DNA of 62,585 nt, counting the filler, from Hausera hauseri (Eukaryota), in NCBI GenBank assembly GCA_046269625.1. It is 11 parts of 11 records of this genome, joined end to end, with 100 filler letters (N's around TTAATTAATTAA, not from the genome) between each part and the next. Parts side by side here need not be neighbours in the genome. Positions count along the whole stretch, not along the records: positions 31,554 to 35,621 come from JBJURY010782535.1; 10 more parts are not named here. One strand, 5' to 3'. The notes beneath the pieces were generated by a model. It had not been told where the DNA came from. It worked only from the letters and a program-made list of their open reading frames with translations, and did no database searches. Of the stretch, positions 5,854 through 56,946 are shown one piece after another (positions within the stretch are counted from its first letter, which is position 1; the number at the start of each line of letters is the position of its first letter). The translations under genes and the position numbers were made by a program.

Positions 5854-5905
5854 TTCTAGTCTATCTATGAAATGAGAAGAAACGTCAGATGAAAAAAATG
5901 TACCA

Positions 5906-9311: not shown

Positions 9312-9530
9312 AACAAATCACTGAGAGTAAACCAAAACCTACCAATCGTTGTTGTAGTTGACGGAATAGAAACAGTCGCTGTGGTAAAAAGAAAAATATC
9401 AGAAAGATGTTATATGAAAATAGAAGATTCTGTACTCATCTATAAAAATAGAAAGTGGAATGATGATAAAATAATACAAAAGATCCCACATGGGGCGACA
9501 ATAAATCTCCATTGCGGATTGAAAGGAGGA
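9312..9530 (+). other. Ubiquitin/FUBI-like domain ending in LKGG, in frame with BEL/Pao Gag
   Basis: SLRVNQNLPIVVVVDGIETVAVVKRKISERCYMKIEDSVLIYKNRKWNDDKIIQKIPHGATINLHCGLKGG aligns by eye along the whole ubiquitin fold. Confidence 0.65.
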
Positions 9531-10591: not shown

Positions 10592-10750
10592 TGTAAATAT
10601 TTTCTAGCTGGTAATTGCCAATTTGGTGAATCATGCAGGTTTCGGCACGAGAAGGAAGATCTAAATAGTTATAAGAATATTAATCAAAAATCCTGTATAT
10701 ATTTTCAAAGCGGGAACTGTAGGTACGGAAAAGACTGTCGGTTTAAACAT
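10592..10750 (+). other. Two tandem CCCH (C-x7-C-x5-C-x3-H) zinc fingers between Gag and protease
   Basis: CKYFLAGNCQFGESCRFRH and CIYFQSGNCRYGKDCRFKH, in the same ORF as the protease motif LLDDAS. Confidence 0.88.
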
Positions 10751-13700
10751 GGAGATTCTTCAAATACTTTTAAACGAGAAATCAATTATTCAAGTAATCT
10801 CGATAGAAAACTAGATAAAGACGGGGTATCTAAAACCCTCCTCAGTGCTGACAAATCGAAATCACGATTAACCGATAGCTTTTGTCAAACATATGAAAAT
10901 GACTACTCAGAGAAACGATCCTATATGACAAAGATGGAAGAAGAAAAGTCTGAAGGATTAGATAAAATAGCCCTAAGGACCGTGTCGGGTTACCTGATTA
11001 ATAGAAATAAGAAGATCAAAGTAAATATGCTATTGGATGACGCCAGCACTGACAGTTTTCTTGAAGAAGATATTGTACGACAATTAAAACTGAATGGGGA
11101 AGAAGAAAACGTTACTGTGGCCGTAGTTGGAGGCATGCAACAAAAACAAAAGATGACCAGAGTTTGCATGACCTTACAAAGTCTAGATAATAGTATTTGT
11201 GAGAGATTTAATGCGTTATCTATGAGGAGACCAACGGGGACCATGAAAGCCGTTAATTGGGTGGTAGAAAAAAGACAGTGGCCGCACTTGCGATGTATTA
11301 AATTTGCAGAAACGGGGAAAGGAGAACATGTGGACGGAATCATAACAGCCAACTATATACATCTCCATAAATCCATAAAGGAAATCTCGGAAAAACCAGG
11401 ACAACCAGTAGCTCGACTGACTCCTCTTAGGTGGACATGCGTCGGGATTCTGAATAAATGTAGAAATAACATAATACGTAACAACTTTGTGCGGACAAAT
11501 TGGACTAGAGCGGATGAAGTGAATGACAATATAAAAAGGTTATGGGAAATCGAAAATTCGATTGAAGAGAAAGAGAATTGGTCAAAATTGGATAAAGAAA
11601 TTCTCCAAGCCACCAAGGATAAGATGAAGAAAACTGAAGATGGAAGATATGAGGTCACTCTACCCTGGAAAAATAGAAGTGAAGAAGTACCAGACCCTAG
11701 ACAAATGGCGGAGAAGCGACTCGAGTATTTAAATAGAAAATTAAACTCAAATGGTTCTGTGAAAACGGCTTACGAGCAAGTAATTGATGATCACATTAAG
11801 AAAGGGTATGTAGAACTAGTGAAGAAAAGGAAAATAAAACGAACTACTGGATACTACTACATTTCCTGGTTTTAAAACCGGACAGATCTACTACTAAAGT
11901 TCGAGTAGTCTTTGATGCTGCCGCAAAGGTAAAAGAAAAGAGTCTAAATGATTTGTTACATCCAGGACCGAAACTACAACAGGAACTAGTAGATATCTTG
12001 ATCCGCATACGACGCTATAAAATAGTTTTGATTTGCGACATAGCCGAAGTGTTTTTGCAAATTAGAATATCTCCCGATGATATAAAATTTGTACCATTCC
12101 TATGGAGGATAGACGGAAAAATCTTCACATATCAATTCACGAGGTTGGTGTTCGGATTAAATGTCTCACTCTTTCTAGCGCAACTTGTAAGCCAGGTTAA
12201 CGCGGACACATTTGAACACCAATATCCACGAGCGGTTAAAACGATTTGACAGTCCACATATATGGACGACTGTATTGTCTCCGTTGAATCAGAAGATGAA
12301 GTTATTGATCTATATCCACAGTTAAAAGAAATTTGGGGCGCAGCAGGAATGAAAACGCATAAATGCCTATCAAACTCAGAACAATTATGTCAAAAGGTAC
12401 CAGAAGATGAGAAGACAAAAGAATATACTTTCAAGAGCGAAAGTAATTGTATTTCGAAAACCTTAAAATTAAAATGGAACGTTAAAGGGGATCGATTGAC
12501 CTTCGATGGTGGGGGAGGTTACAAAAACAGGTTAACGAAAAGAAGCGTTTTAAGCGCTCTGGCAAAAATATTTGATCCTTTAGGACTATTGAGTACCATC
12601 ACTGTAACAGATAAATGCATGTTACAAGAAATGTAGTTGAACGGAATTGATTGGGATCAGGATATTCCCGAAGAATTACAAAAACGTACAAGGATATGGT
12701 TAGATCAATTAACTGAGATTAACGAAATAAAAGTAAAAACATGATTAGGGATGGATAAAGTTAACAATAAAGAAATTCATATATTCTGTGACGCATCCAG
12801 TATGGCTTACGGAGCAGTAGCCTACCTCAGATGCATAGATGAAAAAGAAATAAAAACAAATATAATTGTAGCAAAATCAAAAGTCGCCCCTATAAAATCT
12901 GTATCAATACCTCGATTGGAATTGATGGCGACGTGCGTAGGGGTAAAACTATGTATGAAAGTAGCGAAGATCTTACAGATACCAAATACACAAATAACAT
13001 ATTGGAGTGACATCAAGAATGTTCTATTCTGGATTAAGCAATACTCGAAGTATTATAAACCGTTTGTTGCGAACAGGATAAGATTCATTCAGGAAAAGAG
13101 CGAAGGGTCGAAGTGGAATTATATCAACACAAGAATGAATCCAGCAGATCATCTTTCTCGGGCTACCACTGTAAAAGATATCATAAGATTGAAATCGTGG
13201 TGGGAAAGACCCTAATTTCTAAAATTAGAAGAAAAAGTTTGGCCGGAACAACCGAAGCAGCTAGAAGAGACGGAAATAAAAGAAAAGAAATTGATAAAAA
13301 CATATTCCATCCAAATAAATGAAAATACAAATATTACTCTGGCAAATGTGGAAGAAGATTCCAAATGGGACAAATATATCGAGGAACAAATGATGAAAGA
13401 ATGCAATAAAAACATGTCTAGGAAAGAAGTTGTTATAAAAATTATACGAGAAGAACAAGAGGAACATCTAAAAGACGAAATCAGTCAATTGAAAAACGGG
13501 AAGGAAATAAAAAGAAGTAGTAAAATTTTACAAGCTACTCCCATATTAAATAATGAAGGAATAATCAGGAGTAGTAGCCGCTTATCACTGATTAAATTCC
13601 TCGATTGGTCCGTTAAATACCCAATAGTATTATCCGAAAAAATGAAGATCACCAAGTGGTTGATAGAACATCACCACATACAACAAAGACATTGTGCAGG

Positions 13701-15700
13701 AATTAATCACCTATATGCATTAATAAGTAAGTCATATTGGTGTCCTAAATTTAGAAAGCTGATAAAGAAAATCCAACATGATTGTAAAAATGCCGTGAAT
13801 ATAACGCCAAAGGAGTTCAACAGCCGATGGCGCCATTACAGGAATTCCGCTTTCAAGAACCGCTTAGAGCATTCAGTGTCGTAGGAGTGGATTTCGCAGG
13901 ACCAATACCAATTAAAAAAGGTAGAGGAATGACAAGATTAAAACGGTATATATGTTTGTTCACGTGTCTAAAGAGTAGGGCCATACACTTAGAATTAGCT
14001 GTAGATCTTTCAACAGATTCATTCATACGAGTCTTGTTGAGACTTATAAACCGTCGTGGGAAGTCAGATACGATCGTGAGTGATAATGGAACCAATTTTG
14101 TATGAGCAAATAAAGAAATTTGCGAAATAAAAGTTGATACATATGCCGTAAAACAAAAATTAGAGAAAAATGAGATTCGGTGGATATTTAACCCACCGGG
14201 GACTCCATACTTCGGAGGGGTCTTCGAAATCATGATAAAAGCCACTAAGAAAGCTATATACAAAATATTAGGAAATGCCAATACAACAGAAGAGGAATTG
14301 TTGACAGTAATAATTATCGCGGAGGGAATAGGTAATTCCAGACCCATTACTAGCACTGTAACGAATACCAAGGACGACATTATACTGTCACGAAATCACT
14401 TCATCATACGTGGTTATGATGGGAAAATAAATGCCGAAATTAATGGTACTAGACAAAGTTCATCAGTCGCACGTTGGGGATACATGGAAAACTGTCTAAC
14501 GATTACTGGACGAGATGGAGAGAGGAAATAATAATAGGATATAGAAATCGACAAAACAAACATACGAAAATAGTGGAGTTTAACATTGGAGATAAAGTCT
14601 GGTTATTAGAAAATGACTCGATAAGGAACCAATGGCAAATCGGAACCATCAGTCAATTATATCCAGGAAAGTATGGTATTACTAGAATCGTGGAAATCAA
14701 TATGGATGGGAAACTAATTATTCGGCCAGTAAAAAAGATATGTAAGGTCGAGAGTGATACCAACTGAAAAAATTAATAATTAAAATAAATTAATATAAAT
14801 ATATAATAAATAAATATAGGGTTAAATAATCAGAGATTATCATTTGTTTCGTGAAAATAAATTTAGTCAAGTATAAAATTAAAATCGCCAACTCCTTATT
14901 AGAGGGATTGGATAAGTCAAGTCCTTCTTAGACTGTTGCCAACATCGTTCTTTCGGACATTAATAACCATGTACATGAATTGAGTATTCTTTAAAAACCT
15001 TCTGGTAGACATTGGTTGGAAATAATCTTAACTTATAAATGGACAAATTGAGTGAACTAAAATTTCCTTAAGTTGTTATAGACACTGTTTCTTCTGACGT
15101 TGGTATCTTACGTATAGCAATTAAGCGNNNNNNNNNNNNNNNNNNNNNNNNNNNNNNNNNNNNNNNNNNNNTTAATTAATTAANNNNNNNNNNNNNNNNN
15201 NNNNNNNNNNNNNNNNNNNNNNNNNNNTATCGTCACATATACCCAAAGACAGAGCAAATCAAACCCATTAATCACACCGATTGTGTTCAAATGTGTATGC
15301 ATGTGTGCCAAGGATGTGTGTGTGTGTGTTTCACTGTCAACACACCCAATAATAAAAACTTTAAATTCCCCATCTGTCGACTCGCAGCAGTCTTGTTCTC
15401 CTGTGTGGGGTGATTGATCACTAGAGGAGCCCCTGGTTGGATTCTAATTTAAAGGGAGATGTGAGCAATCAATAAACAGCCTACTGAAGAGTAGGAGGAA
15501 GTTGAAGATTATCTTTTAGTGCTATGGAACTATCACCATCTACCACGCCAGATGGACTGCACTCAAAGGATGTAACGCCTTGTACCAAAGTGGAACAAAG
15601 TGCTTTAGGATCTGTGCTTCACATTCATTCATTCACAGGTAGAGTCAATGTTACAATATCACGACCTGTCTGTTTTTACGGTATGTGCTGGAAATGAGAG

Positions 15701-21924: not shown

Positions 21925-24900
21925 GGATGGGTAACTCGATTTGTAAAGGAACCTAAAGTTTGTTGGATGATTGCAAACCTCTACAAGGGCTTTAGCGAAT
22001 CATGCAGCACCTTTACCACCTTAAGCCCAATGAGAAGCTAAAATTGCATTGTGCGTTCCGTTTTCTATTGCTATTCGACAAACTGCTTCGATTTCTTCCG
22101 TATGATCGTATTTAAAATTGTTTAAAGCAACGACGACTGGGACTCCTTGTTTTTTGATATTTTCAATATGGCGAATCATATTTGCACAGTCGGCTTCAAC
22201 AAGGCCAACATTCTTTTCTTCAGTATTCTTGAGGCAAAGTTTGACCGGAAACAAAATCCGGGGCGCCACCATGAAGCTTAAGAGCTCGAAGTGATACAAC
22301 CAAAACGGCAACATTTGGTACAAGACCAGACGATATGTATTTAATATTAAGAAACTTTTCCGCTCCGATATCGGCACCGAATCCGGCTTCCGTCACAATA
22401 TATCTATTCGCACCAATCAGTTTAAGAGCAATCAAATCATCTATGTTTGCCGAATTGCCGTGCGCTATGTTAGCAAATGGTCCAGTATGAACGAATACCG
22501 GACCACCATCGAAGGATTGCATCAGTTTGGGTTTAATAGTTTCTTTCATCAGAACTGCCATTGCACCTCAAACACCCAAATCACTTTTGTGATCACATCC
22601 CCCGATTTACTAAATCCCACTACAAATCGCCTAATACGTTGTCGCATGTCTTGTAAACTAGTGGACATAGATAATATGGCCATCAATTCACTAGCAACGC
22701 TTAGATCAAACTGACAATCTTTTTCATGACCCTTTTCTGTTTCAGACTTGCCGATCATAATTTTTCGTAAAAATCTATCGTTAGTATCGATAACTCGTTC
22801 GACTGGAATCGTACTGAGATTAATATCAAGTCGAGCAAATCGACGAATTGTCATTTCGCCCCATGTCGTAACGTCTGTATTTGATATACTCAACTTTTGA
22901 ATTCTTTCCAATTGTATTGCACACAATTTACGATGACCGGTATGATTAAATGTGACTAAACGATTGAACAAAGTAGTGCAACTTTGAGTGTTTTTGTGAA
23001 ACTTTCGAGCATCGATAGCAGCCACCAGTAAGTTATTGGCATCAGTGAATGCATGAATATCACCCGTTAAATGTAAAATAAATTCCTCCATTGGAATAGT
23101 TTGAGAATAACTGCCGCCTGCGGCACCTCCTTTAATTCCGAAAGTTGGACCTTGAGACGGTTGCCTACAGCATGCCAAAACAGTCTTTTTAAATCACGCG
23201 GATAAAGCTTGACTCAGATCCATTGTTGTTGAACTTTTGCCCTCACCAAATGGTGCTGAGTTGATTCCAGTAACAAATGCGTATTTCCCATTCTTGTAAT
23301 TCTTCAGTCGTGATAAAATTTCCAAACTGACTTTCGCTTTACTTTCACCATATAAATGAAGTTCGTGGGGCAAAATGCCAATTTTTTTTGCTAACTGGAA
23401 AGTCGGTTTCGGTTTTTGTGCACAAGATAGTTCGATATCTGAAGGCACATTCGATTGTAGTTTTAAGGAGTTTGGTGAACTAGTCCGATTTGTATTCTGG
23501 TTTCTTTCAAATAATCTCTCCACACTATAAACAGTATTCTTTAGTAGCATTGTCACTGTCATAGGCCCAACTCCACCAAAAACTGGGGTTATCCAATTAG
23601 CACGAGTTTTAGCCACTACAAATTCAACATTGCCAACAAGTTTCTTTTTCGATTTGTTATTTGCGTCAGGGCTGGTGGATATGTCGCAATCTATAACAAC
23701 AGATCCGGGCTTAATCCAGTCACCTTTTACAAACTGTGCTTTGCCAACAGCAACCACAAGAATATTAGCTCTACTAACTTCATCAGCAATATTTTTATTT
23801 CTCGAGTCATAAACTGTAACTGTTGTCTGGTTCCATAACAACAGGTTAGCGATTGAAATATTATTTCTGTACAGTACTTGAGCAATGAAAGTAAGGTTCT
23901 TCGCGTCATATTCATGTCCAGCGAAGAGTAAATTATTATTAATGAAGCAATCATGTTTCAGAAATGATTCATGGAACAGCCGAATAGAATTAAAGTATGT
24001 TTCGTGTTTTCCTTTAAAGGCTTTATCTATAAATCTCAAAAATCGAATCAGCGGTGAAGTACTGGGCATAATTTGTGTTACTACTACTATGAACCGTATC
24101 CGATCAATTCATACTTAGAAGAGATAACGTGACATAGTGCGTGACCAGAGGACAAAAGTGCTCCCATCGTTATGGAATAGGAACAAACTAAAGCAAAAAA
24201 TGGGCTTCTCGTTTTCTTTAATCGACAGATGTGTAACGTATTTTATGTTATCAACTTTCAATCCAACAATCTGAATGTGGGGATACTGTTCAAGAAAATC
24301 CGGAACACTCAGTGAAAGATGATGGTGTTGGTAAGTAATTAAAATCGTTTTAGGACCGAGTTTATTTTCAGCGATAAGTGTACTAAATAGGGGAACATAA
24401 CCGGGATCAATTAAAATGTAACCGGGATGGAAATTATAATAGACAGAAAAATCGTAGTTGTTTAATAAATATGAAATGGTTACTGCATTAAATGGATCAC
24501 ATTTTATAATTTTAGACAATGAATGACTGCCCGTTGTAAAATTTTCTTCGGCTTTCTTTAGTTCGCGTTTAAGATAAGTCGGTCCAAATGGGGTATTCAC
24601 ATACAATTTATATCCTAATTTTGCAACAAAATCAGTTATTGGTCGACCAACTATTTTACCTCGGCCTAAAACGACAGCATGTTTTTCTTGTCTACTTAGA
24701 CCGGTAAACAAAATGAGCCCTAAACGACCTCTCGTTGTACATAGAACAGCATATAAATTCATTTCCCCATGTGCCAGTTTACAGGAATTTTCTTCTCTTG
24801 ACCCATCGACATCTTTTTTTACTGCATGGAATTTGTGATGAGGTTAGAATTAACAACACTCGTACAGTCAAACGGTAATTGCACTATAATTTCATGCACA

Positions 24901-30880: not shown

Positions 30881-31553
30881 CTAGACAGGCCTGTAGTGCT
30901 TCAGTTCGTTGAATATTCGGTGTAGCAGTTGATGCACTGCATGCACTTCAGTCGTAATAATTGACAACGTTTTTACGGCTGAATTTAACTCCATTATCAA
31001 TTGCTGATCTGCGGTACTTTCTAACGTGGAATAACGCGTCGACAATGGGCGAAACTGCATGACCAACTTCCGGGTGGCACATATCACTGGGACTACATTC
31101 GATGCCACCGTTGTTTTGTAGTGTTTCTAATTGAACATCCGTTGGAAACTTTTGTAATTCGAACTCAATTCATTGCCGTAACTTCCGACTGAAGTTTCTG
31201 CTGTCTTACGAATGAGCATGTCGACGTCTTCGATTCGCTTCGGATTACCGTCCAATTTTAGCGTCTCTTTACTTAACTGAAATACCGCAAATTTTCGCAA
31301 AAATTACCATTGATATGTTTCCTTAAAATTGTCCACGGTTTAAACAATTGATCACTCGTCCGATTCCGGTAGAAGGTTGAAAAATGATCTTCCTTCAGCA
31401 ATTGTTGAAATAGTTCCATCGACGACTGGACGAAAATACGCCACTCTAACGAANNNNNNNNNNNNNNNNNNNNNNNNNNNNNNNNNNNNNNNNNNNNTTA
31501 ATTAATTAANNNNNNNNNNNNNNNNNNNNNNNNNNNNNNNNNNNNNNNNNNNN

Positions 31554-31990
31554 GTTCTAGCATGTATAACCTTCCTAGAATTAGGTGGTATTTTCTCAAT
31601 ATGTCCTATCCAAATGTCCGTTTCATCGTAATTATCTGGAATATCTTCATTATTAGGACAAAGAGATCCTGACTGCAAATTTATGTAAAATCCATCCAAA
31701 TTTCTTAATACATTCATTCCTAATATGCATCGGGGATCTAAAGTTGTCATCACATCTAGAACCACTTTTATTCTTTTTCCACAAATTATAGGTTCACATT
31801 TCCAATACCCATATGGTTTCAAACATTGCTGAAAGGCTGATGTAGTACCGGTACATTCTTTTGGGGCCAATTTTATGTGTGACTGATATTCGTCCGGTAT
31901 CGCATGAAACGATGGCTCCGGTGTCTACCATTGCGTTTATATCGAAAGTATCGAAGTGAACTGTCGTATGAGGTCGATTATCTCTTATCA
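31554..31990 (-). mobile_element. Retropepsin (Gypsy-type aspartic protease), frameshifted, cut by the contig end
   Basis: RPHTTVHFDTFDINAMVDTGAIVSC ... PRCILGMNVL ... IPPNSRKVIHAR. Confidence 0.85.
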
Positions 31991-32739
31991 GCTTGAGAAA
32001 GGTCAATATGTCGTTATGATCATCTATATGTGGTTCCATTAAAGTATAACGTGCTGCGTAATAATTTGGTGATCCATTTGATAACATGACTGTTAGACTA
32101 TCTAATGATTGCGTATCATTTGTTGGTTCTTTCATTCGTTGTTTAAATTCAGTTAAATCTGTGTAGTACCTTGCTCGTTCTGCAGAACCTTGTTGCATTT
32201 TAGCAGGTGGCATAGTTGAAATCAAATAGTTCGTCCTTCCATTTGGTTGTTCGACATCATTATCAGTGGCTTGTTTATTTAATTTGACTCTATGATGAGG
32301 TATGGGTGGCAATGTTTTTAATTTTGGCGACATTGGTAGTGATACTCTATTCTTTTCCATACTTTGAGTAATAATAGTTTGAAGTATTTCTTCTTGTGAA
32401 TATTTTGGAATATTACGCAGCTTTATGTATTCTTCTCTTTTAGCATATGGATCATTCAAGTCAGATAACTTTGGTAGCCTATCAATTGTTTGTTCCTTAA
32501 TCGAAAGTATTTTCTTTTCATATGGAGCATCTGGTACTGTGCGATTGTTCTTTAATCTTGTTTTCTTTATTGCAAACAATTTTCGGATTTTTCTATTCTT
32601 CTTTTTAGAAGTGCCAGGTTTTGAATATAGTCCATGTGTATTATCATCATCATCTGAGCTTGATGAATTATTTTTCAGTATAGGATTGCCAGTCTTATAA
32701 TCCACATGTTTTTCCAATTTACCGCGCCATTGTTTTTCA

Positions 32740-34600
32740 TGGTGAGCTTTAATGAATTTGCCAAGTGGGGAAAATAGAGCACCAATTATGCTCAGAGATA
32801 ATCCTGCCAGATTGTAAATTTCGCATGCATTTAATACTGAATTGATACAAACTTTCAAAGTTTGCAGGATAAAGTAGATAGCTAGAAATCCAGAAGCTAC
32901 CTGTCCAAATTTTAAAAATCTACCCCAAATTTTGTGCCATAAACTGGAAACTATTTTTGTATAGGCATCGGGTGTCCATAATTGATCCCAACTTCCTTCT
33001 CCAGTAGAATCATCAATTACTCTGTGAATTCCTCTATTTACGACCTGCTATAGTTGTTTTGGATAGGCTAGAAATTTGACAAATGAGTCAATTTCTTTTT
33101 TACTTTACAATACTGACTTTGATACGTCAGTAAACATGTTTGTTTCAATGGCATATCTAAGGTTAGTCATCGTCAATTTTTTTGGTTGTTCCTTTACCCT
33201 ATTTCTATCCGGTAGTCTAACCCATAAGTCTTGATTATCGTATTTGATAAATGGCTTGTTCAGTGCTGTACAGTTTTAAATTTCTGTTGGAATTGTGTGT
33301 GGTGCCAGTAATACTCTAGTTATAGGCTGAACATATTGAATTTATCTTTATACTTAACTGGTATTTCTGAGTAGCAAGGGGTACCAGTGATTAATGGTAA
33401 GTCCAATTTCTTGCATTTGTAGGTGAACAGCATTTCTCCTAGGACTCTGCCTTGGATTCCTTCGCCGAAAGGTAATGTTATTGTTATCATCTCTGGATTT
33501 GAAGCGTAAATGGCCAGTCGATTTCGTAATGTCTCAAAATTGATTTTACAAAAGTTTTGTATTGTCTCAGAATATATTTCTTCTATCGTTTTGTGGGTGA
33601 GATAAAATAGGAAATCATCTCGATTAGCGATGTAGTCAGCAATGTTCAGTAATTGTGCCCTGTTAACTGGCGAATTATCTGCCTGTGCAATCTCTTTTTC
33701 CGATATGAAATAATTTTCATAGTTTGTACTGAACACTTGTTGTCCACATTTAACGATCACGTCTTGTTGTATAAATTTAACTCCTCCTTTTATATCCTTG
33801 GATATTACAATTTTAGGGGTTCTCACTTCTGGAATCGCTTGAGTGTTTGTATTTTCAAAGTTTGTTTCATAGTGTCGAGCGTAACGTTTTCCTGTCGTTA
33901 CATTAAATTCGCCTTTTCGAATCTGTACCAATGAGCATTCATAGCTCTTGGGCGCTGTCCATACTATAGTAGAGGACTTTGTGTGACAATGTCCTATTTC
34001 TAATCTGCAGAAAGATGCATCCATCATTGTATTTGTACTCGTTTCGAAGATAAAGGTATTTTCTTTGATTTCGACTTCATATTGGTCGTGCACCACTACG
34101 CCTGAAATAACACCTTTGCCAATATCAAAACTTCCACCTTTACAATTACCTTTTTCATCCTTATGTCCGGCTATTCATTTCTCTTAATGAGAAATTTGGC
34201 CTTTAATTGCTGTTAGTAATATGTCTCCATATTTCAGTTGTTGAATTTCAGCTGCATCTCGACAATAAGTGGGATTAATCGACACATATCTAGGCATCGT
34301 ACTTGGCTGTATTAAGGAATCATGGTGTAAATGACCAGAGTAAGAAATAGTGCGAGATACTCGCAATGAGCATTCTAGTCCTTTTATGTGAAGCGTGGTT
34401 TTATCATAATAAATAAATAGGTTTTGTGATATTGTTTGTAGCTTTCTCGGAAGTGCATTCGGGCATGATTGTAAGTCCATGAGTGAATAGTAATTTCCTT
34501 CATAAATTTTGTCACAGTCATATGCTAATATGGTTCCTGACCTTTTGAAATTAGAAAATAAAAGCAGTATAAATAGAATGAGTTGTAAGAAGAATCCGTT
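32740..34600 (-). pseudogene. Chuvirus-like (gB-type, class III) fusion glycoprotein / env, degenerate
   Basis: Signal-like FFLQLILFILLLF, then ILAYDC..YSLMDLQSC, ECSLRVSRTISYSGHLHH, GNCKGGSF, CRLEIGHC..TIVW..ECS, CYSEIPV, QPITRVL, and C-terminal WGRFLKFGQVASGFLAIYFILQTLKVCINSVLN membrane helices. Confidence 0.82.
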
Positions 34601-35577
34601 AGATTTTGTTCCGTCTGTCTTTTGTATATCCTCTTGAATTTGTTGTGTCATTTTCTCCATAACGACTTGAACTACTTCCTCTTGAGGTGTATTCTGAGTG
34701 ATTTCATGAATGGCTTTTTCTAAAGCAGTCTGGCCTATTTCTGGTTGAGTTATTTCTTCATTTCGTAAGAATAAATCTTTCCATTTACCATATTGTGGTA
34801 TAATCATCTTACTAGCTTGGATTATTTTTCCAGTTGTTGTTTTCAACTCGCTTTCACTTGGTGTTTCAGAAATGAGCAAAATTATCGTTTTCTCCCAATT
34901 TGTACGTGGCGGTTTTTCTAAAATAAGTTGAGTTATGTCATCAACAGTAAAATGTTTCCATTGAGAATTTTTCTTAAGATTCTTCATGAATTTTAACTGT
35001 TCTTTAACTCGTTTCTTCCATTTAGGAGAACGATTATTTATTGCGTCTTTGCCTATATCAATGTAATACAATTCTCTTGCTAATAGCTTAACTTCTTTAT
35101 GTTCTCTTTGTATAATTTTGGTGTTTTGTATTCCATTATTTGATTAGAAAAATTCTTAGCTATCGTTATAGTTTTATTCCGTTTACTTCGTCTATTTAGA
35201 TCGAGTAAGGTTTTCTTTACAATTGGCTGTACAACTTCTTGATCATCAGTATCAATATTTGGTCGATTCAAGTTTTCAATTAATGTCTCATGGAGATGTT
35301 TCAAATATCCTTGTTTATCTTTTATTCCCATAATTGTTTCGTCATGTGTTATATTTTCGCCATTAATAATTTTTCGTTTAGCTTTTTCTGGAGTTAATTC
35401 TGTTGTTTGTCTTACTGCGATACTACATATGGTATCAGGAAGCATTCCGACGTTTATTAGAAGTTCTTCTGGATCCAAAATTCTATCGTAGTATATAATT
35501 CTGAGATGTTTTATTTGCTTTTGAGTTTGATATTTGATTGCCTGTTCAAGGTCAACAACTCGGCTGTCACTACTCAT
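34600..35577 (-). CDS. Uncharacterised N-terminal part of the glycoprotein-protease polyprotein (possible Gag), with one frameshift
   Basis: ORF 34184-35071 is open from this region into the glycoprotein; ORF 35080-35577 abuts it. No motif recognised. Confidence 0.4.
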
Positions 35578-35759
35578 TTCTATATTTGGGAAGAAACTAT
35601 TGTCAATCCAAGGTCGGATTGNNNNNNNNNNNNNNNNNNNNNNNNNNNNNNNNNNNNNNNNNNNNTTAATTAATTAANNNNNNNNNNNNNNNNNNNNNNN
35701 NNNNNNNNNNNNNNNNNNNNNTGCTTCTAGAAGAGAAGAACACAAGAGATACGGATATG

Positions 35760-37597: not shown

Positions 37598-37683
37598 GAA
37601 ATGGATGGCGATTACAAAGAACAGGTTAGTGTATCGAGAATGTTAGATACCACAACGTTGCGACCGACACGAAAAAAGCAATT

Positions 37684-38163
37684 GTGCAGGACAATAATTT
37701 GATGGAAATAAAAAGAAAGACGGGCATTGAAGGGAATTATGAAGACTGGCGAAAACGGATGTTAGTCTTGGTAACGTTCATGAGGAATCGCAGATTGAAC
37801 AATAAAGTGGTTGCACCTACGGTTGCACAGTTCACGATAGCCATTCATGGTATCTTTAAGAATGCTGACCTTAACACCTTGACTTCAAAGCCAGTGAGGC
37901 AAATGTTGGAAGAAAAGTTTGATACTGATTTGTTACCAAGGGCTATGGCAATGGATGAACTCATCACGAAATTATTTGATGAACTTGTTGAGATGGATAT
38001 GCCTCAGTTGACAGTTGGTCAAATGCGGGTCTTTCGAGTTAGAAATATGCAGATAGTATCAGACGATACAGATCTAAATGTAGTCCCTAGTATACTTATT
38101 GAAGAGGATATGGGTAATGAAGATAAGTTTGATGGTCAAGAATATTGGTCAGCGAAGGATTAG
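37684..38163 (+). CDS. DEK C-terminal (DEK_C) domain-containing ORF, probably a frameshifted continuation of the previous ORF
   Basis: PTVAQFTIAIHGIFKNADLNTLTSKPVRQMLEEKFDTDL matches the DEK_C pattern 'IL..ADL..T.K.VR..LE..F..DL'. Confidence 0.7.
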   Translation: MQDNNLMEIKRKTGIEGNYEDWRKRMLVLVTFMRNRRLNNKVVAPTVAQFTIAIHGIFKNADLNTLTSKPVRQMLEEKFDTDLLPRAMAMDELITKLFDELVEMDMPQLTVGQMRVFRVRNMQIVSDDTDLNVVPSILIEEDMGNEDKFDGQEYWSAKD

Positions 38164-38749: not shown

Positions 38750-39362
38750 TGATCGTTTTGACTCAAGACTCATTTTTCTGCCTGAGTGTCTGTGGAAAAT
38801 CATACTTTGTACAAAAAATGTTATGGGATTGTAGTCATGTGATGGATGCTGAGCCAGAAACTTTGTATGGATTTAAACTTCTCAACCTATTTATGCTGAA
38901 TTGCAAAACATGGCTAAAAAGATGAAGTTCATCTACGGTTTTCCTGACTGTCGAGATGCAGACTTGTTTCCAGCGAATCAAAGCCACTTAATCATTTTGG
39001 ATGATGTCATTTTCCAACCTCAGAACATCCTGAAGGGGGTCAAGTCTTCACACAATTCAGACGTCATAGATCCACGAGTGTAATAACGCTGAGTCAGGAT
39101 GTATTTCAGCCGCAAGTCTGAACAGTAATCATATGTGTAAGAGTCCGAGAGACAGACTACCAGTGAATATGTAAATCTAGTCGCCCGTCAAATCTTCCCA
39201 CCAGCAAAAGGAGCTTTTCTTAAGAGTTTTGAAGATGCAACCAGAGAGGCTCATGGTTATTTAATCCTTGACCTGACTCCTAGCTGTCCAGAACATTTCA
39301 GATTGAGATCGGGTTTACTACCTCAACAGTGGCCAGTTGTGTATGTAGCTAAAACAAAGTAA
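38750..39362 (+). pseudogene. FtsK/A32-like packaging ATPase of a Maverick/Polinton (adintovirus-like) element
   Basis: Decayed Walker A SVCGKSYFVQK, Walker B HLIILDDV, SPRD, ARQIFP, FEDATREAHGYLILDLTP..FRLRS. Confidence 0.85.
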
Positions 39363-39365
39363 GTC

Positions 39366-39707
39366 ATGTCTGCACGGATAAAAAGGAACGCACCCTTGCT
39401 TAGAGCTCTGTACCACGCCACTCCCCAGAAGAGAAAAGACATTCTTGGGCACTGCTCACCTGACTTTCTGAAAACTTTGTGTGAGATTGCTCTGAACATT
39501 TTAAAAGGTAACATTAAACTTTCACCTTCTCAACACCGGAAACTTAAAAAACAGAAGAAGATCATCAGACTGCTGGCTGACAGAAGAAAAGGTTTAAAAC
39601 ATAAACAGTCAGCTCTCAAGACGCAGGGAGGGGGGTTTATTCTACCTGTTTTAGCAGCTCTTGCACCTTTGATTGGAAACCTGGTGGGTGGAATGATCAA
39701 TAAATAA
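39366..39707 (+). CDS. Small basic Maverick/adintovirus virion protein (PZ / 'GasderminX' type) with QGGGF motif and amphipathic C-terminal helix
   Basis: LCEIALNILKGNIKLS..LKKQKKIIRLLAD..QGGGFILPVLAALAPLIGNL. Intact ORF directly after the ATPase. Confidence 0.8.
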   Translation: MSARIKRNAPLLRALYHATPQKRKDILGHCSPDFLKTLCEIALNILKGNIKLSPSQHRKLKKQKKIIRLLADRRKGLKHKQSALKTQGGGFILPVLAALAPLIGNLVGGMINK

Positions 39708-39936: not shown

Positions 39937-42900
39937 GATCCAACCGACCTCGATAGAAAATCAGCTACCAAGTTATCCGTGCCTGAGATATATTCCAAAG
40001 TAAAACTGAACGTCGATAGGTATGTTATATGTCTCTCTTGCCTTGGTTATGGCTCTTTTAACGACATGGTGTGCAGCAGAGACTTATGGTCAGTTTGAAT
40101 GATGAATGGGCGAGAGAGAAGTAAGTGTTTGAAGTATTTTACTGCCAGAACTATGGCGAGTAACTCGCGATCAAATGTAGAGTAACGGCTTTTAGGTTCT
40201 GTTAGTTTCTTAGAATAAAATTCTAATGGTTCGGCGACGCCATTAAAGATCTGGTGTAGTACAAACCCGTAGCTGTGGTTGAGGCATCGGTTGTAATTAT
40301 AAGATCTGCCTTGGGTTTAGGATAAGCCAGTATTTCTACGCTTTTAAGACCTTCGCGCAAGTGGTCAAACTTGGTTACCAGATCAGGAGTCTAGTGGATC
40401 AACTGCCTCTTTTCTCCTGGTGATAAATGTGCAAAAGGTGCCATGAGCTCAGAGCAATGAGGCACATATTTGTGGATGAATTGGAGTGTGCCTAAAAACT
40501 TCTCATATCAGTGGTAGTTGTTAGTAGAGTTATGTTCTTTAATTGTTGTAGTCGATCCGGTTGTGGAGAGTAGCCGTTGGGAGTGATGACGTGACTTAGG
40601 AAATTTACACGTTTTTGAAAGAAGTGACACTTTGCAAAGTTGACTTGCAAATTGCTATAAAGTAATCTGTGAAAGATAATACGAAGGTGTTCTTTATGTT
40701 GTTTGACAGACGTAGAGGCAACTAGTATGTCATCAATATATGGATGAGCGAAATCTAGGCCTGAGAGTACAGTATCATTGTGCCGTTGGAAAGTTTGAGA
40801 GGCACTACGCAAACCAAATGGCATAAATATATATTCGTAAGGGGCAAATGAAGTAATGATAGCAGTTTTTGGAATATCATTAGGTGCAACAGGAATTTGA
40901 TGATATGCTTTATGCAAGTCAATTGTAGAGTACGTGTTAGTGTTGGTGAGGCTGTGCAGGATGTCATTTATTAGATGTAAAGAATAAGCATCCATAACTG
41001 TTAGATTATTTAACTGCCGATAATCACCGCATGGTCTGTATGTGCCATCTTTTTTCGTCGCAACATGCAAAGGCCAGGCCCATGGTGACTTGGATCGTCG
41101 AATAATGCTCGCTTTTTCGAGTTCGTTGAACTCTGATTCAACGGCTTTTCGTCTGCGAGGTGACAGTGGTCTGACCTTTTGTCCAATAGGTCTTTGGTGT
41201 TCGGTGACTATGTGGTGATATGTTGTAGAATGCGGTTTAAAATTGATGTCCTTCTTAAGAATGCAGGAACAAGAAGTCTTAATGTAGGATTTAATGTCAG
41301 AATCTAATGATGAGAATGATGATGGCATATCATTATAAGAGTTAGTTGCTGTAATCGATATAGAAAGACTAAGTGCTTCATTAATGACGTTTGGTTCAGC
41401 CGAGTGTTTTAAAATTGATTTACCACTTGACGCGATTGAAAATGTAGATTAAATATTAAATGCATTGTTGTCAACCGATGAACAGGATGTCACATTGACA
41501 TTTAAACAATCTGAGGAAAACAAAGTTTCCGACTGATCTTTTGGTAAGTATTTTTTAGAATTGGCAGTGAAATCTCTGCGCAGGAGGCATTTATGCTTGC
41601 AGTCGACTAACAAGTCGTATGCAGCCAAGAAATCTGAGCCTATTATAGGCGATCTAATGTTGGCTATATGAAAATTCCAGGAAAATTTCCCTGGTAGGTT
41701 GTAGAATGAGAAGGACAGCTTTGTGGTACCTACAATGTTCAAAGGTTGACCACAGGCAGTGAAGAGTGGAGAAGAGAAAACTGTGTTGGATGTAAGAGCG
41801 AAAGACAAAGGAAGAAGTGAAAATGCAGCTCCTAAATCAATAAGGAAATCTATGTGTGATGTGTTTCCAAGTAACAAATTAGGTTTCAACAGAAAGTCTG
41901 CATATGCTGTGTTGAAATGGCCAGTAGTTTAAACGATATTGCCTGTACCAGAATGTGCCGTGGCATCTGGTGGCATTATTGTTTTTTTGAGACTTGTTGG
42001 TACGAAGAAAAGGAATGATGAGTGCGCGGAGGAGAAGAAAATGGAGAACTAGAATTCCTTTTATAATATTTACATCCTGGCGCGCATGACCTAGCTTTGG
42101 ACTGGTACTTTGCGTGATAGATGCAGATGGGATTGTCTACGGCATATTGTGCATTGTAGAATCGACAGACTAAAACACATTTCTTTGCATCTTTGCGGAA
42201 TTTGTTGTGATAAAAGCACGTCATTGTACCATCTCTAGATTTAGAACAAGAGGAGTGCCTGGAAAAACTGCGATTGCGCGAAATACTATTTTCGCTTCCT
42301 CGGGGCACAGATATGTCGCTGAGTTGGGCTGTGATTGCAGAAATTGCTTGTTGTAGTGTATAGAATTGCTTCTGCATCATGTTTAGTTGTTGTGCAAATA
42401 AAGTGTTGTCTGGTAGTGTGTGAGTAGTTGCTGCGGCTACAGGCTGCGAGTTATTGGACTGCAGAATATCAAAGCTTTTTTCTGCCAATAAGGCGAGCTG
42501 TTCGAGGGCAGTAGAGTCATCTACTACAGTAAGCAGCGCTCGGATGGAGGTTGGCAGAGATGAGAGAAAGTACCGACGAAGAAGATCGGCATTGTTTGTG
42601 GGAGTCACGCCTAAAGAGCTCAGTTGAGATGGCCGTTTTAAGGAAATCCGATGGTTTTTGATTTCCAATGGCGTGGTCGTTGAAATACTTCTGGACTATG
42701 CTGTCGATGGAAGGGTCGGTGATATGTAGAACAGATTCGTACAGCATATCATACGGGCTTGAATAAGAGAGGTTGTCAGTCAGGTTACTGATTTGCTGCT
42801 TGATGTTGGCTGGGAGTAATAGCATCAAACTCTTAGCCCGCAAAAAGGAATCTGTAATGTGATTGGCTTCTAGCCATTGCAAGTGAAACTGCAACCAAAT

Positions 42901-43083
42901 TCGGCTCGAGTTCGTTTTATCTAGGAAAAAGTCTGTATAGGGAAGGTTTGTAGATGTTGATGGTGTGGGGTCGACAGGACGACGACCAGACCTGGTTTTT
43001 GTTAAAATTTCGGCAGAAGGGTCAAGGTCTGATCCACCGTTGTGCATAAAATAAAAATCAGAGGAACAGAAAAAAGAGGGCAA
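39937..43083 (-). mobile_element. Ty3/Gypsy LTR retrotransposon, CsRn1-like, copy 1 (gag-PR-RT-RH), degenerate
   Basis: Gag IGNQKPSDFL and two CHCC motifs; PR FLIDLGAAFS..IIGSDFL; RT SPWAWPLHV..RPCGDYRQLN, MPFGL, YIDD; RH TDAS, YSTFDRELLA, TDH. Confidence 0.92.
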
Positions 43084-43354
43084 TTCAGAATAAAGAATAT
43101 GAGCTGTATGTTTGTGCGTAACCCTTAATGTGTGGACATGTTTATTATTAGAAAAGATAAAAAAAGAAAGGGGACATGGCGCAACGGGGCGAGCACGTTC
43201 GGTCCCTCAACCAGAGAATCCCTTGTATCTCGACAAAAATTATTAAAACCAAAGTGACTTCTCGATGACGAACAAACAGAAATTTTCCATATCTTAAATG
43301 ATTGAGTGTATGAATAACTGTCACCATTACCTTGTGTTATTTCATCGGAATTGG

Positions 43355-47642: not shown

Positions 47643-50600
47643 CTACCCCTTTACGGAAACGACACTGCATTAATGAAAAGAAAGTTAAAAGACAAAATAG
47701 TAAGGTGTAGAAGAACTATTGAAAAAAGCAAGTTTTTGTTGTGATTGAAACTAAAACGTGAAAAAAATTGCATCTTTATATGGACAAGGTGTTAAATTTT
47801 GTCGACATTCTGTTCTATGCTGTATTTGCTGAAGGTAACCGTCTTATTTTTTTACTGTGTTGTTTGGCTGCTTGCTGAGTTGGTTTGTAGGAAGTTAAAT
47901 TTTGATTTGACGTGTCAGCAGCTTGAGAACAAGTCGGTATGTCGTTTTGCGTAATGATTTGAGTTAATGCAGGTTTTGGAGTAGCAGGTTGTCGTGCAGG
48001 TAGAATGGAACAAGGATTGAAAGAATCTAGAAAGTTTTGTGTGGATTTAGCTGAAGATTCCGGTGTATCATCGACAAAGAATTCAGGTTTTACGTTAGAT
48101 ATGTAAACGTATTGTTCCTTATCATTTTTTAATATAGTAACTGTATGTGAAATAACGTTGAGGACTTTAAATGGTCCTACGTAGTTTGGTTGAAAACCAG
48201 AGGGTAATGGATTTTTTAACCAAACGAACTTGGCATTAAATAGTGAGTCGGGTAAGCATGTTTTATCTACATGTACTATTTTACAGAAAGAATCCTGGCT
48301 TAGCTAAACAAAGTTATTTTGTGCAGACCTAATTGTTACGCCATTTGGTGTGTTGTCCAAGTCGGTGAGCTCAAAAAGTTCCCGAATTGTGGTACTGAAA
48401 GTGCTTCAGCAGGTGCGCAACCAGTGGTAGTAGACGGCGTGTTGCGCCACCCGAGTAAGACAAAAGGTAGGATGGTTGTTCAATTCTTATGACCTTCGGC
48501 CAGGATTTTTAATGAGATTTTGAGAGTGCGATGAAAATGTTTTAATAAGCAGTTCGACTGGAGATTGTATGGAGTTGTGTGTATGTGGTGTATGCCCAGT
48601 CGATTAACTAGAAATTTGAATAGATTAGACTCGAATTGAGGACCTTGATCTGTAATTATGTAGCGAGGTGAACCGAACCGGCTAATCCAGATCCTTATGA
48701 ATGCGTCGGCAATGGAGTCTATATTGATGGAGCGCAAAGGGACGACTTCCAGGCAACAAAACGCGCGTTCCATCATTGTTAAAATAAATTGGTGGTCGTT
48801 ATCGGAATGTAATGGGCCAACGATATCTGTTGAACTGACTCAAAACGAGATGTACATGGGAAATGAAATAATGGTGGTTTAAGATATTTAGCAACTTTGA
48901 ATTTTTGACAAGCTACGCATTGCCTAACCCAACTCTGTACATCAGACCTCATTGATGGCCATGTTACGTGACGTATGAGAAGGCGGAATGTAGCCTTGGA
49001 ACCTGGGTGATGCAAAGAATGAACATGTTGAAATGCAGATTGTTGAAGAGTGGGTGTCAAAATTGTCAAATGTTGTCCAGGTGTCGAAGTGTCCATGGCT
49101 ATTCCATCGATGATCTGTACGGATTTATATTGTTTCAGAATGTCATTGGCAGGTGGATTTTGGATTAACTGGTCCTTTGAAAAAATTGGTGTGACGCTAA
49201 TTGCACCGACTGAACGTGATAGGATGTCAGCTATTAAATTATCAGTTCCTGAAATATGGCAAATTTTAAAGTTGAATGTTGAAAGATATGATATATGGCG
49301 TTCTTGTCGCAGTGATGGCTGTTTCATGTTCATTACGTGATTTAGAAGTTTGTGGTCAGTTTGCATGGTGAAGGAGCGAGCGATAAGCAAGTGTGAAAAA
49401 TGTTTCAGAGCTAAAACATAGCCAGAAGTTCTCTATCGAAGGTAGAATAGCGGCGTTCTTGTGGCTGCAGCTTGCGTGAAAAAAATTCTAACGGTTCATT
49501 TATACCTTGAGATATTTCATGAAGAACCGCTCCTACTGCTGTAGTCGATGCGTGGGGTTGTTAAAATGAGCTCAAAATCAGGTTTTGGGTAGGCTGAAAT
49601 TTCAACTGTTTTGAGCTTGTCGCGAAGTTCATCGAAATGGTTAGTAAGTTATGGCATCCAATATGAGCTTTTTCTTCGGCCCTACTCCTAGTTGTGCGAA
49701 AGCAGCCGTTAACTGGCTACAATGTGGGACGTATTTATGTACAAAATATAAAGTCCCAAGGAAAGTACGCATATCAGTAGTAGTTTTTGGTAACTCGATG
49801 TTTCGTAGCTGATGGATTCTATCAGACTGTGGACTGTGACATTCAGGTGTGATGACGTGGCCAAGGAAATTAACCTTTTTCTAAAAGAAGGAACATTTAG
49901 AAAAGTTCTCTTGCAAATTGTAGTTGTGCAAGCGTTGTAAAACTAGTCTGAGATGTTCTTTATGTTGTTTTGGTGATGTGATGCGACTAGTATGTCATCA
50001 ATGTATGGATATGCAAATGACAAGCCTGAAGGAACTAAATCGATGTGCCGTTGGAAAGTTTGTACCGCGTTCTTTAAACCGAGCGGCATGAATGCGTACT
50101 CGAAAAGACAAAAAGGTGTTATAATTGCCGTTTTTTGGGATGTCTTCTGGTGCTACCGGTATTTGGTGGTAGGCTTTTTCGAGATCTATGGTTGAATAAA
50201 TCGTAGTCTTGTGTAAAGAATGCAATATATCCTTAATCAACGGTAGAGAATAAGTATCTATGGTTGTGACACTATTAAGTTGTCGATAGTCGCCGCATGG
50301 ACGGAATGTGTCATCTTTCTTTGGGACGACATGGAGTGGTGATGCCCATTGTGACTTAGAGCGTTTTATTAGGCCGGTTTGTTGGAGTGCAGAAATTCCG
50401 CTGGTATTGCCTGTCGACGGCGTGGTGAAAGTTGGCGGAGTTTCTGTCTAACTGGGTTAAGGTTTTCTGTAATGATATGATTAAACGTCGTGTTATCCGG
50501 TCGAAATGTTGGGTCTTTTCTAATTGTATAGAAACAAAACTTGGTTATATAGTGTTGTATTTCTTGTCTAAGTATAGTAAAGGCTGTTGTTGTCACGGCA

Positions 50601-52774: not shown

Positions 52775-53870
52775 TCAAGCTACGCACATAATAGCTCTAT
52801 GCTCCAAGCAGAATGGTCGCTTGCATTGCGGACAAGCCCAAAATGTTTTTCTGTCTTTAGAATCTGGGCAATATGCACATCGATCACTTTTCTCCAGTTT
52901 AATTGACTTCCTGTCATCAAGAAGTTTGGACAAAGAAGGTGTAACAACATGATATCCCAAGAAGTTTATTGCTAGCTTCACATTGTCCTTAAGTCGACAG
53001 TCCTCCATGCAACATTTGATCTGCTGGTCAACACTCTGATAGCCCGCATTCTTCAGAAACTGAAAATGGGCTTCTTTTGGCCTGACACGGTGGTTACCGC
53101 GGTCACTGAAGATGATACATCCATTGTTCGCTGCTATATCCATGAGTTTGGAGAAGATGGCATAAGTCCAGCGTCTGCATTTCCTTTTGCATGAGTATCC
53201 ACGGACAAGCTTATCAAATATGTCCACGCCAGGTGTCGTCCGATTGTATTCCAATACCCTGACACACTTTGCATTGTCTTGTGGAACAGGAACCGTCCGG
53301 TGCAACATGTCTATCAAGAGTACAGCTTTTGTCCCTTTATACCAGAAAGATACGATAGAGATTCCTTGGCCATTGTAATAGACTCGAGTGACATTTCTTG
53401 CACGGATGGTGGTTGATCTGGCTATGGGAGGAACTCCAGGCTGTTACTACGCAATGTTCCGATGTAAGACGTTTTCTTGAGCTTCAACTCTTCGGCGAGT
53501 TCAACAGAAGAAAACCACTTATCGGCAGTTGGGTGTTTACACATGTTAAAATAGGGTTGCATCAAGTGCATAGTTACGCCTTTGGCTGTGACGTTTTCTC
53601 ATGATGAAAGAGAGCCTTTACCGATATAGACCACAGCATTGAGAACGTAATAGGATTGAGCATCACACAGCCACATCAATTTAATTCCAAACTTGCCAGG
53701 CTTGGTGCTTATATATTGTTTGAAAAGAACTCGCCCGTGGAACTCTAACATCTGTTCCTTGTTTGTCAACCACTCACTGGGCACAAAGATTTCTCACAGC
53801 TTCTTGATAAATGCACTCGTAATCTCTCTCACTGGTGCCAGAGGGTCTTGTTTGTCCGGTCATAGTAGGT
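52775..53870 (-). mobile_element. piggyBac (PGBD4-like) transposase pseudogene
   Basis: DPLAPVRE, EQMLEFHGRVLFKQYISTKPGKFGIK, YNRTTPGVDIFD..YSCKRKCRRW, C-terminal Cys-rich RCAYC..CPQCKRPFCLEH. Confidence 0.9.
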
Positions 53871-54429: not shown

Positions 54430-56720
54430 GAAAACTCTAGTAAGACGTGGCTCCACTTTCATGAACTTTGGCTACAATCCAACGGCATTACTGACTCGTT
54501 AACCAAAGCCCATTATCTACTCTACCTTCTACCAAACTCCATGAAGACCTCAATCCATAACTTAGTGAACATCTTTCAACACTCTGACCCTTATACGCAA
54601 TTGTTCAACGCTGTATTAAAACTAACAGAAACACCAATTGACTCCATAATACAACGATTCTTTAATGAACACGCAATGGGGACACAAAACCTAGTGATTT
54701 CTTACGCACCTCTTTGGCCCACTCACGTACCCTGGGTGTCACAAAGGAACACAATCCGGATCTACTTTGCCGATATTTCCTTAATGCTTTACCCATTCAA
54801 ATTAGGGCTTTACCTACTGTTGTTAAGAATTCTACAGCTTTAGCTAAACTAGCTGAATTGGCCGAAAAGCACACGAAGTTTTACAATTACAATCACAACC
54901 CATCGTATTAGCTGTAATGACGACCGACGACAGTCAATGACATGCACCTATCGTACACCAGCTGAACCAATTACGCACCGAAAATGTGACACTACAACAT
55001 GCAATTAATAACATCAATGATAAGCTGAATGACCTTTTCTCACATCGACGGAATGCTTCTTCCCCTAATCGAACACTTTCTGTTTTAAGAAATCGAACAC
55101 CGTCACCAACGCGGTCATTTATGTTATTATCATAACAAATTTAATAGCAAAGCAAATAAATGCTGTTTAAGGTGTAGATATTATTCCTCTCATCTACACT
55201 CAGATAAAATTATTTGCATCTATCGTGCAAAATTGGGATCTAATTCTCGGAGTTGTATTTTAGGCTGTAAATATAAAACTAACCATAACTACATCACTAA
55301 TAGACGTCCCAGTTTCTCTAAAATTAACCGTCCCAATTCACGAATCCAAAAAACTGATTTCGCCGTCAGTATTCACGGCAGAATCTGGCAAAGGCAACTT
55401 ACCCAATTCTTGTTGACACACTTCTTTTGCAGTCTTTACCCTAAAAGCTGCCATCTCTACTTCTAACATTCAATCCATAGACTTTCTCATCAATACCGGT
55501 GCAGCGATTTCATTACTAACACTTTCTTTTCCGGTTCAGTATCCTTCACTAAAAACAAAACCGTTATATACCGCCTCCGGTCAACCCACTGATATTGTCG
55601 GAACTTGCAAATTATCTTTCACGCTGCCAAAATTTTCCTTACCATTCCATTGGATGTTTACAGTCGCTAACGTCCAGACGGCAATACTTGGCTCCGATTT
55701 CCTGTCACACTATAACTTGCTAATCGATTGTAACCAACGATGCCTGAAATCAAATACACTTGAAGATTGTAGTACAGGAATGGGCAGCACCCCGACGACA
55801 GCACAGCCAACGGTAAGTAGACATTCAATCTTAAAACAGTCAATACCTCATACTAATTCTCTTAACTATTACGTTTTACCTCGTAAGCTGTCAAAGGACA
55901 ATGTCGATAGCCAGTCACAGCTCAATATCGTCACTCACGATCTTGTTTCTTCAGTAAAATCGTTGAACAACTACACTTACTCAAATAAGGTTTCAGACAC
56001 GACCATTCTACATCAAACTCCACTCGATTCCTTACCAACAGTGAACCAACATTCACTGCTAGCAACCTTGGTTCATGGTCACTCCCAATATTCCAGCAAC
56101 TACGCGTAAGTTTATAACAACTCATTAATACTTCTTGTCCTCGTATTGTTCAGAAAAATCGGAATTTCACCCCTGTAAAAGGCATTTACCACCATATAAT
56201 TACACAATACCAAAGACCAATTCGACAAAAGGTCCGTCCATTGTCACCGAGTCGCATACAGGCAGTAGAGGTGGAATTTTTTGAATTCGAACAATCAGGT
56301 ATTGCCCGTAGATTTAAATCTCCAGGGTCTTCGCCTTTCCACATTGTCCAAAAAAGATGGATCCTTCCGACCATGCGGCGATTACCACCAACTTAATACT
56401 TTAACCATAATGGATGCATATCCACTACCATTAATCAAAGGCATATTACATCGGCTTAATTCTACTACAATCTATTCAATAATTGATTTAGCCAAAGCTT
56501 ACCACCAAATTCCTGTCACACCGGAAGACATCGAGAAAACTGCAGTTACCACACCTTTCGGTCTTTATGAGTACTTATACATGCCTTTCGGTCTCCGGAA
56601 TGCTGCACAGACTTTTCAGCGACACGTTGACTCAATCCTTTCAGACTTCCCTTTTGCTCATCTATATACTGACGATATCTTGGTTATTTCTGTTAAACAA
56701 CACGAGGAACACTTACGATC
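54430..56720 (+). mobile_element. CsRn1-like Gypsy copy 3 (gag-PR-partial RT), degenerate
   Basis: WLHFHELWLQSNGITDS (homologous to copy 1 gag), doubled CHCC, FLINTGAAIS, ILGSDFL, RPCGDYHQLN, MPFGLRNAAQTFQR, YTDD. Confidence 0.9.
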
Positions 56721-56946
56721 TATCCATTTCACCAGCATGCACTCGATAATTGTTTCTTCCCTCTGCGTTCGTATTTCTGTTAAACTCACCAGCTTTGAAA
56801 ACTGATCAATAATAACCAACATATACGGATACATGCTATCTTTGTCNNNNNNNNNNNNNNNNNNNNNNNNNNNNNNNNNNNNNNNNNNNNTTAATTAATT
56901 AANNNNNNNNNNNNNNNNNNNNNNNNNNNNNNNNNNNNNNNNNNNN

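Follow-up and report, generated by a model that had tools for sequence, protein, structure and literature searches.

The window analysed here, a 62,585-nt stretch of DNA made up of contigs of about 5–9 kb strung together with N-spacers, includes a 4,068-nt contig lying between the spacers at 31454–31553 and 35622–35721. Animal transposon remnants are abundant across the window. As the feature under study occupies the entire contig (31554–35621), both ends of the element fall into gaps of the assembly. Translation and Pfam searches place on its minus strand, in this order, a ubiquitin-like domain, an internal signal peptide, a PF24664 glycoprotein, a membrane segment, a linker of ~250 aa and a retropepsin. 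The individual features are as follows:

31554–35621, minus strand: element fragment, filling the whole 4,068-nt contig
35415–35583, minus strand: ubiquitin-like domain, indicated by modest but agreeing signals
34770–35095, minus strand: predicted helical region in the position of the relatives' Bcl-2-like slot (low-confidence models)
34547–34603, minus strand: internal hydrophobic segment, predicted env signal peptide (hydropathy 1.75)
32930–34531, minus strand: fusion glycoprotein ectodomain (PF24664, Monjiviricetes_fusion; Pfam), with one frame switch near 33340 and five stops
32763–32900, minus strand: predicted transmembrane segment (32900–32844, hydropathy 1.81) and a weaker hydrophobic segment (32819–32763, hydropathy 1.54)
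31990–32750, minus strand: hydrophilic linker of ~250 aa, open and in frame with the env tail and the protease
31554–31982, minus strand: retropepsin and start of the next pol segment, with VDTGA at 31928, a frame switch near 31905 and ILGMNVL in the next frame

The order of glycoprotein, hydrophobic segments, linker and protease had been proposed in a first-pass annotation of the sequence, and is confirmed by translation, Pfam, hydropathy and profiles built from relatives.

Reading frames and domains of a decayed copy

The glycoprotein tail, some 250 hydrophilic residues and the VDTGA motif lie in one open frame, a stop-to-stop ORF of 417 aa at 31794–33047; the shared frame had been recognized before, with slightly shorter bounds (31794–32858). 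Three frame switches interrupt the copy (near 35.1 kb, 33340 and 31905), and its env in addition contains five in-frame stops (34186, 34177, 33278, 33107 and 33050). The last of these switches splits the protease, so that ILGMNVL, which does follow VDTGA as the first-pass annotation stated, is read in a different frame. Because several of the breaks sit where other copies differ, they look like private decay of this copy.

PF24664 matches three minus-strand ORF pieces that are collinear with the profile, namely 34184–35143 (E 4.9e-7, profile positions 4–123), 33320–34174 (E 2.4e-23, positions 143–407) and 31794–33047 (E 3.9e-17, positions 516–634). An AYDC motif at 34525 is preceded by the hydrophobic segment 34603–34547; at a hydropathy threshold of 1.5, a comparable peak stands ahead of AxDC in six of eight relatives, and small residues are found just before AxDC in relatives. 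Past the ectodomain, most relatives have a single strong hydrophobic peak, whereas the present copy has a second, weaker segment as well. Going by hydropathy, the single peak of most relatives fits a cytosolic pol, while the second segment of this copy would permit another topology.

With Pfam alone, the broken protease scores weakly (RVP, E 0.1). Against a profile of the final proteases of seven relatives, it is the top match in the six-frame translated window (39.2 bits, E 1.7e-13; second part 5.3 bits), compared with 2.7 bits against a profile of non-final proteases. It is also collinear in tblastn with the last protease before the reverse transcriptase (RT) in the relatives L001 (E 2e-8), L003 (E 1e-6), P0028, P0122 and P0125, and by these alignments appears to correspond to that protease. 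A profile of 12 non-final proteases detected no extra protease domain in the linker. The catalytic DTG is separated from YIDD by 401–408 aa in six of six relatives, and from the relatives' domain positions RT would be expected to start ~510 nt past the contig end. About 45 codons after the protease fall inside the contig; they are collinear with relatives, but a post-protease profile alone gave no match there.

The region upstream of env, of about 330 aa, had been described as unknown; it does precede env, but it begins with what is probably a ubiquitin-like domain. PF00240 matches 35583–35415 with E 5.3e-4, under the Pfam cut-off, a profile of the ubiquitin-like segments of eight relatives has its sole six-frame match in the window at the same coordinates (E 8.7e-5), and ubiquitin-like clusters are among the atlas leads for this segment, at 0.83–0.87 (below 0.9). 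Each of these signals is modest, and all point to a ubiquitin-like domain ahead of env, as in the planarian element Burro.

Between this domain and env lies the helical region, in a slot that is weakly Bcl-2-like in relatives: P0052 matches Bcl-2 with E 0.00096, and the slot profile of the relatives retrieves a series of Bcl-2 chains, starting at E 0.014 and ranked below four designed helical proteins. In the window, the same slot profile gave no HMM match, and the segment aligned to the relatives' slot in the expected register with an hhalign probability of just 0.5%. Two AlphaFold models of the region reached pLDDT values of 42.5 and 49.9, and three fold searches with these low-confidence models yielded nothing significant, Bcl-2 folds scoring Z 5.3–5.7, below unrelated helical domains. 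The top fold matches, Ndc10 and recombinase domains (Z 8.3–6.6), were set aside as within the range of helical low-confidence models. The region had no match in the atlas. A PDB sequence search and a profile comparison did not reach significance either; a slight resemblance to the FADD death domain (E 0.1) we treat as a lead only.

Relatives sharing the order and a multi-copy family

A HMMER search with the tail ORF gave 121 matches, all through its glycoprotein part. A retropepsin follows PF24664 within one protein in 11 of these 121, or in 11 of the 21 that were domain-scanned, which had been picked for length or position; a profile run over all 127 stored proteins together with the metagenome loci L001 and L003 recovered the same 11, plus two cluster mates and both loci. 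The loci, three in all (L001, L002 and L003), had been retrieved with an alignment of the env core. Word-index protein searches returned no longer relatives; it was the full HMMER scan that retrieved them. Scans of viral contigs returned no relative, and prokaryote genome contigs searched with P0028 gave no match.

RT and RNase H are reached by six relatives (P0028, P0050, P0122, P0125, L001 and L003), five of which continue into an integrase followed by a GPY motif. This motif, given as a Ty3/Gypsy feature in PMC12440569, together with the domain order identifies these five as Ty3/Gypsy elements. The first-pass annotation had referred to captures of such glycoproteins by Pao or Gypsy elements; the relatives bear out the Gypsy part and not Pao. 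The fullest case is L003, where a single ORF of 3,703 aa runs from a gag-like start through two CCHC knuckles, ubiquitin-like domains, env, two proteases, RT and RNase H to integrase. In L001, a 5′-open ORF of 3,426 aa holds env, protease (three in total), RT, RNase H and integrase in one frame, while L002 comprises gag, CCHC, a ubiquitin-like domain and env. Among the proteins, P0028 (2,627 aa) reads CCHC-env-PR-RT-RNaseH-integrase, and P0122 (4,844 aa) and P0125 (3,003 aa) read env-PR-RT-RNaseH-integrase. Gag sequence bearing CCHC is present in L002, L003, P0025 and P0028, and tandem proteases, two to seven in number, occur in several relatives. None of the three loci, which are possibly incomplete, shows a pair of LTRs.

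The env of this copy is 27–32% identical to 11 envs of the polyprotein type over 325–412 aa (149–217 bits in BLAST), against 17–27% identity and 43–81 bits for 24 stand-alone glycoproteins. In a 36-row tree of env ectodomains, from which P0003 and P0007 were omitted because they share clusters with P0122 and P0125, it falls inside a 12-row group with SH-aLRT 100, apart from the 24 other chuvirus-like glycoproteins; this is a quick tree in which its branch is long (1.71) and long branches may join artificially, and the BLAST gap agrees in direction. The group consists of this env, all nine env-protease polyproteins in the tree and two truncated relatives. As read from these ORFs, the env-before-protease order is real in the relatives and ancestral. 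The gag-env-pro-pol polyprotein suggested in the first-pass annotation, which had called for a search for intact homologues, is what intact relatives display: L003 extends from gag to integrase in its one ORF, and L001, P0028, P0122 and P0125 likewise keep the order in one frame. That suggestion is supported by the relatives' single ORFs and by the grouping of both env and protease with them.

In public data, 8,475 contigs of run X1 and 885 of run X2 match the contig over 30 of 30 bins in each run, at 80–100% likeness; depth gives no copy number here, and X1 is possibly not independent of the source of the window. Records that extend past the contig ends number 83 in X1 and 14 in X2. Since thousands of similar contigs cover its whole length, the element belongs to a dispersed multi-copy family. 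Summed depth is comparable for env, linker and protease in both runs.

We consider it highly probable that the contig represents part of the interior of a decayed copy of an animal retroelement, a multi-copy one of the Burro-like Ty3/Gypsy LTR type, with gag upstream and RT, RNase H and integrase predicted downstream. Its Ty3/Gypsy class is taken from the pol of the relatives and, with gag, RT, integrase and LTRs expected beyond the contig, is likely rather than read directly.

Three other readings were weighed against this one. A non-autonomous or internally deleted derivative of the same lineage, with env and protease kept and RT-integrase partly or wholly lost, would agree with the decay of this copy, with a contig in which pol is not seen and with the deletions present in single X1 contigs; we nevertheless judge it very unlikely, given that collinearity with the pol of the relatives extends right to the contig end and that the final two bins show no drop in depth. 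Chance nesting, by which a glycoprotein element and the protease of an unrelated LTR element were joined in this copy only, draws on the linker itself. Depth dips there in both runs (32506–32641 and 32098–32233), the interval 32573–32745 is covered by none of the 16 matches listed (out of a total of 9,406 pieces), none of which spans the whole contig either, and the gap from glycoprotein tail to protease, 333 aa, exceeds the first gap of 14 of 15 relatives (130–217 aa, the remaining one being 390 aa). Yet this copy, decayed elsewhere, has kept its linker open for ~250 codons; the relatives matched by env are also those matched by protease, with the two domains in a shared order, and one X1 contig bridges 32403 to 32776. 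No LTR-like or other notable repeat was found within the contig, junction included, and the relatives are collinear, so the nested insertion that the first-pass annotation had named as a refutation finds no support; we regard such nesting as even more improbable than a derivative, and the shared depth dips may instead reflect a variable linker.

An endogenised chuvirus glycoprotein, or a Pao element resembling Anakin, with a neighbouring protease, is the reading to which we give least credence, hardly any. PF24664 is a Monjiviricetes glycoprotein family, and mosquito Pao elements do capture chuvirus glycoproteins, according to PMC7642597; against this stand the low identity to the 24 stand-alone glycoproteins, on the other side of the tree, the Gypsy-type RT-RNaseH-integrase of the relatives, and a contig in which Pfam detects no Pao domain and no viral N or L gene. 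An Anakin/Pao type was dismissed because the env lies outside the arthropod chuvirus-like group and the protease matches Gypsy-type relatives, and a Jingchuvirales endogenous viral element because the env does not stand alone but has a ubiquitin-like domain on one side and a retropepsin on the other. Troyka was discarded as well, no Troyka encoding an env according to the text available of PMC12440569.

Comparison with known elements and a model of expression

The preferred reading, a fragment of a Burro-like Ty3/Gypsy element, has close counterparts in print. As described in PMC6431247, which cites Jurka 2007 and Grohme 2018 for the element, planarian Burro/GYPSM1 has an ORF of 4,873 aa with Gag and CCHC knuckles, a Ubi2/SUMO-like domain, BCL-2, and an env between gag and pol. 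The same account has the env matching mononegaviral fusion glycoproteins and being followed by protease, a dUTPase-like domain, RT, RNase H, integrase and ankyrin repeats; it presents Burro as the first case of an in-frame env between gag and pol, and mentions decaying Burro fragments in Dugesia japonica. Planarian BURRO1 RNA increases upon smedwi-2 RNAi (PMC8532177). The present copy resembles Burro in its ubiquitin-like domain, its mononegaviral-type env and a protease in frame with env, and the relatives resemble it in their Bcl-2-like slot and, for P0122, in the possession of ankyrin repeats and in ORF length, 4,844 aa compared with 4,873 aa in Burro1. The copy differs in showing one protease only and no detectable Bcl-2, in having no gag, RT or LTR inside the contig, and in an env just ~30% identical to those of the relatives. 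There is good support for the view that the element would work like Burro; its putative membership of Burro proper is drawn from architecture only.

A second set of counterparts consists of the GAG-ENV-POL errantiviruses with an HSV/gB-type env, which PMC13524379, in the text available, places in Nematoda, Bryozoa and Platyhelminthes, in several clades and not one; accessory domains are absent from that description, which predicts gB-like trimers for env of the chuvirus/gB type and also includes nematode endogenous retroviruses with ENV before POL. The main text of that paper contains neither the word Burro nor the word polyprotein. With the element studied here, these errantiviruses share a chuvirus/gB-type env before pol, probable membership of Ty3/Gypsy and a multi-copy state. 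Nematode endogenous retroviruses with a continuous gag-env-pro-pol ORF were reportedly also treated by Sacco et al. in 2022. Anakin, a group of Pao elements in mosquitoes with a captured chuvirus glycoprotein (PMC7642597, in the part available), is similar in that a glycoprotein of the same broad family was captured by an LTR retrotransposon; it is Pao and not Gypsy, and the env of our copy lies outside the stand-alone group that includes insect glycoproteins.

Drawing on general knowledge of polyprotein processing for topology and cleavage, we propose that intact copies would express one long ORF translated at the endoplasmic reticulum, with Gag and the accessory domains remaining cytosolic. 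Entry of the glycoprotein into the lumen would be directed by the internal signal peptide, which signal peptidase would remove by a cut just before AxDC, leaving a lumenal ectodomain of class III type, and the membrane anchor would bring the chain back to the cytosol in one pass. There, the retropepsin would cut itself and the pol enzymes free. A single unspliced mRNA would in this way yield equal quantities of Gag, Env and Pol, and Env would probably serve cell-to-cell spread.

A bolder view, which we think unlikely, is that the copy represents a deep-branching lineage of gag-env-pol polyprotein elements that has been amplified in an animal group without a prior report, in which the Bcl-2 slot would hold a death-domain-like module, that is, a cargo for control of apoptosis would have been swapped ahead of Env.

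The first-pass annotation had taken an env upstream of pol to be new. That premise was mistaken, as the order has been described for Burro (PMC6431247) and for GAG-ENV-POL errantiviruses (PMC13524379); the copy is a divergent member of an already published gag-env-pol polyprotein architecture and, its surprising order being in print, contributes little by itself. What it does reveal is a divergent, strongly amplified family whose design has received little study: a single membrane-crossing polyprotein would supply the capsid, the fusogen and the enzymes. Our searches gathered 11 protein clusters and three loci built in this way, for the most part without names, and the known range of this design would be widened if the host falls outside flatworms, bryozoans and nematodes.

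Other gene copies, ORFs and mobile-element remnants in the window

Besides the retrotransposon fragment under study, the window carries several other features:

4016-4495, plus: mariner-type transposase piece
5876-7143, plus: protein kinase gene copy, stop-interrupted and apparently intron-poor
9312-13884, plus: decayed Pao/BEL element (DUF1759, Peptidase_A17)
22549-24843, minus: C1-tetrahydrofolate synthase gene copy, stop-interrupted and apparently intron-poor
37630-38163, plus: ORF with a DEK_C domain (E = 3e-10)
38877-39707, plus: short ORFs downstream of the DEK_C ORF
39948-43206, 48411-50396 (minus), 55417-56805 (plus): ordinary Gypsy remnants, on contigs other than that of the fragment
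52775-53443, minus: DDE_Tnp_1_7 transposase piece

The synthase and kinase copies are possibly processed pseudogenes. In the Pao/BEL element, two CCCH zinc fingers are positioned between gag and protease. The short ORFs at 38877-39707, for which the Pfam scan returned no match, are reminiscent of Polinton/Maverick genes.

Proteases and accessory domains in the relatives

Polyproteins related to the fragment contain two to seven tandem retropepsin domains each (protein sequences P0003, P0007, P0012, P0025, P0122 and P0125; metagenome loci L001 and L003); in P0122 two of the retropepsin domains sit C-terminal to the integrase, accompanied by ankyrin repeats and C2H2 fingers. At both L001 and L003, a separate ORF 3′ of the polyprotein encodes an RNase_T exonuclease domain (L001:10617-12107, E = 1.4e-5; L003:12085-13473, E = 0.0011). 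The database entry for another relative, P0028 (HBK71150.1), assigns this complete env-pol polyprotein of a retroelement to a Flavobacteriaceae MAG; its source is likely animal DNA binned with a bacterial genome.

Additional hydrophobic segments in the relatives

All five full-length relatives (L001:2-10282, L003:97-11208, P0028, P0122 and P0125) have a further hydrophobic pair downstream of the integrase, in which a signal-like segment is followed by 280-350 aa without a clear Pfam match and then by a strong membrane segment. Additional hydrophobic segments lie amid the proteases of L001 and P0122. The segments at these two locations may represent extra membrane proteins inside the polyprotein.
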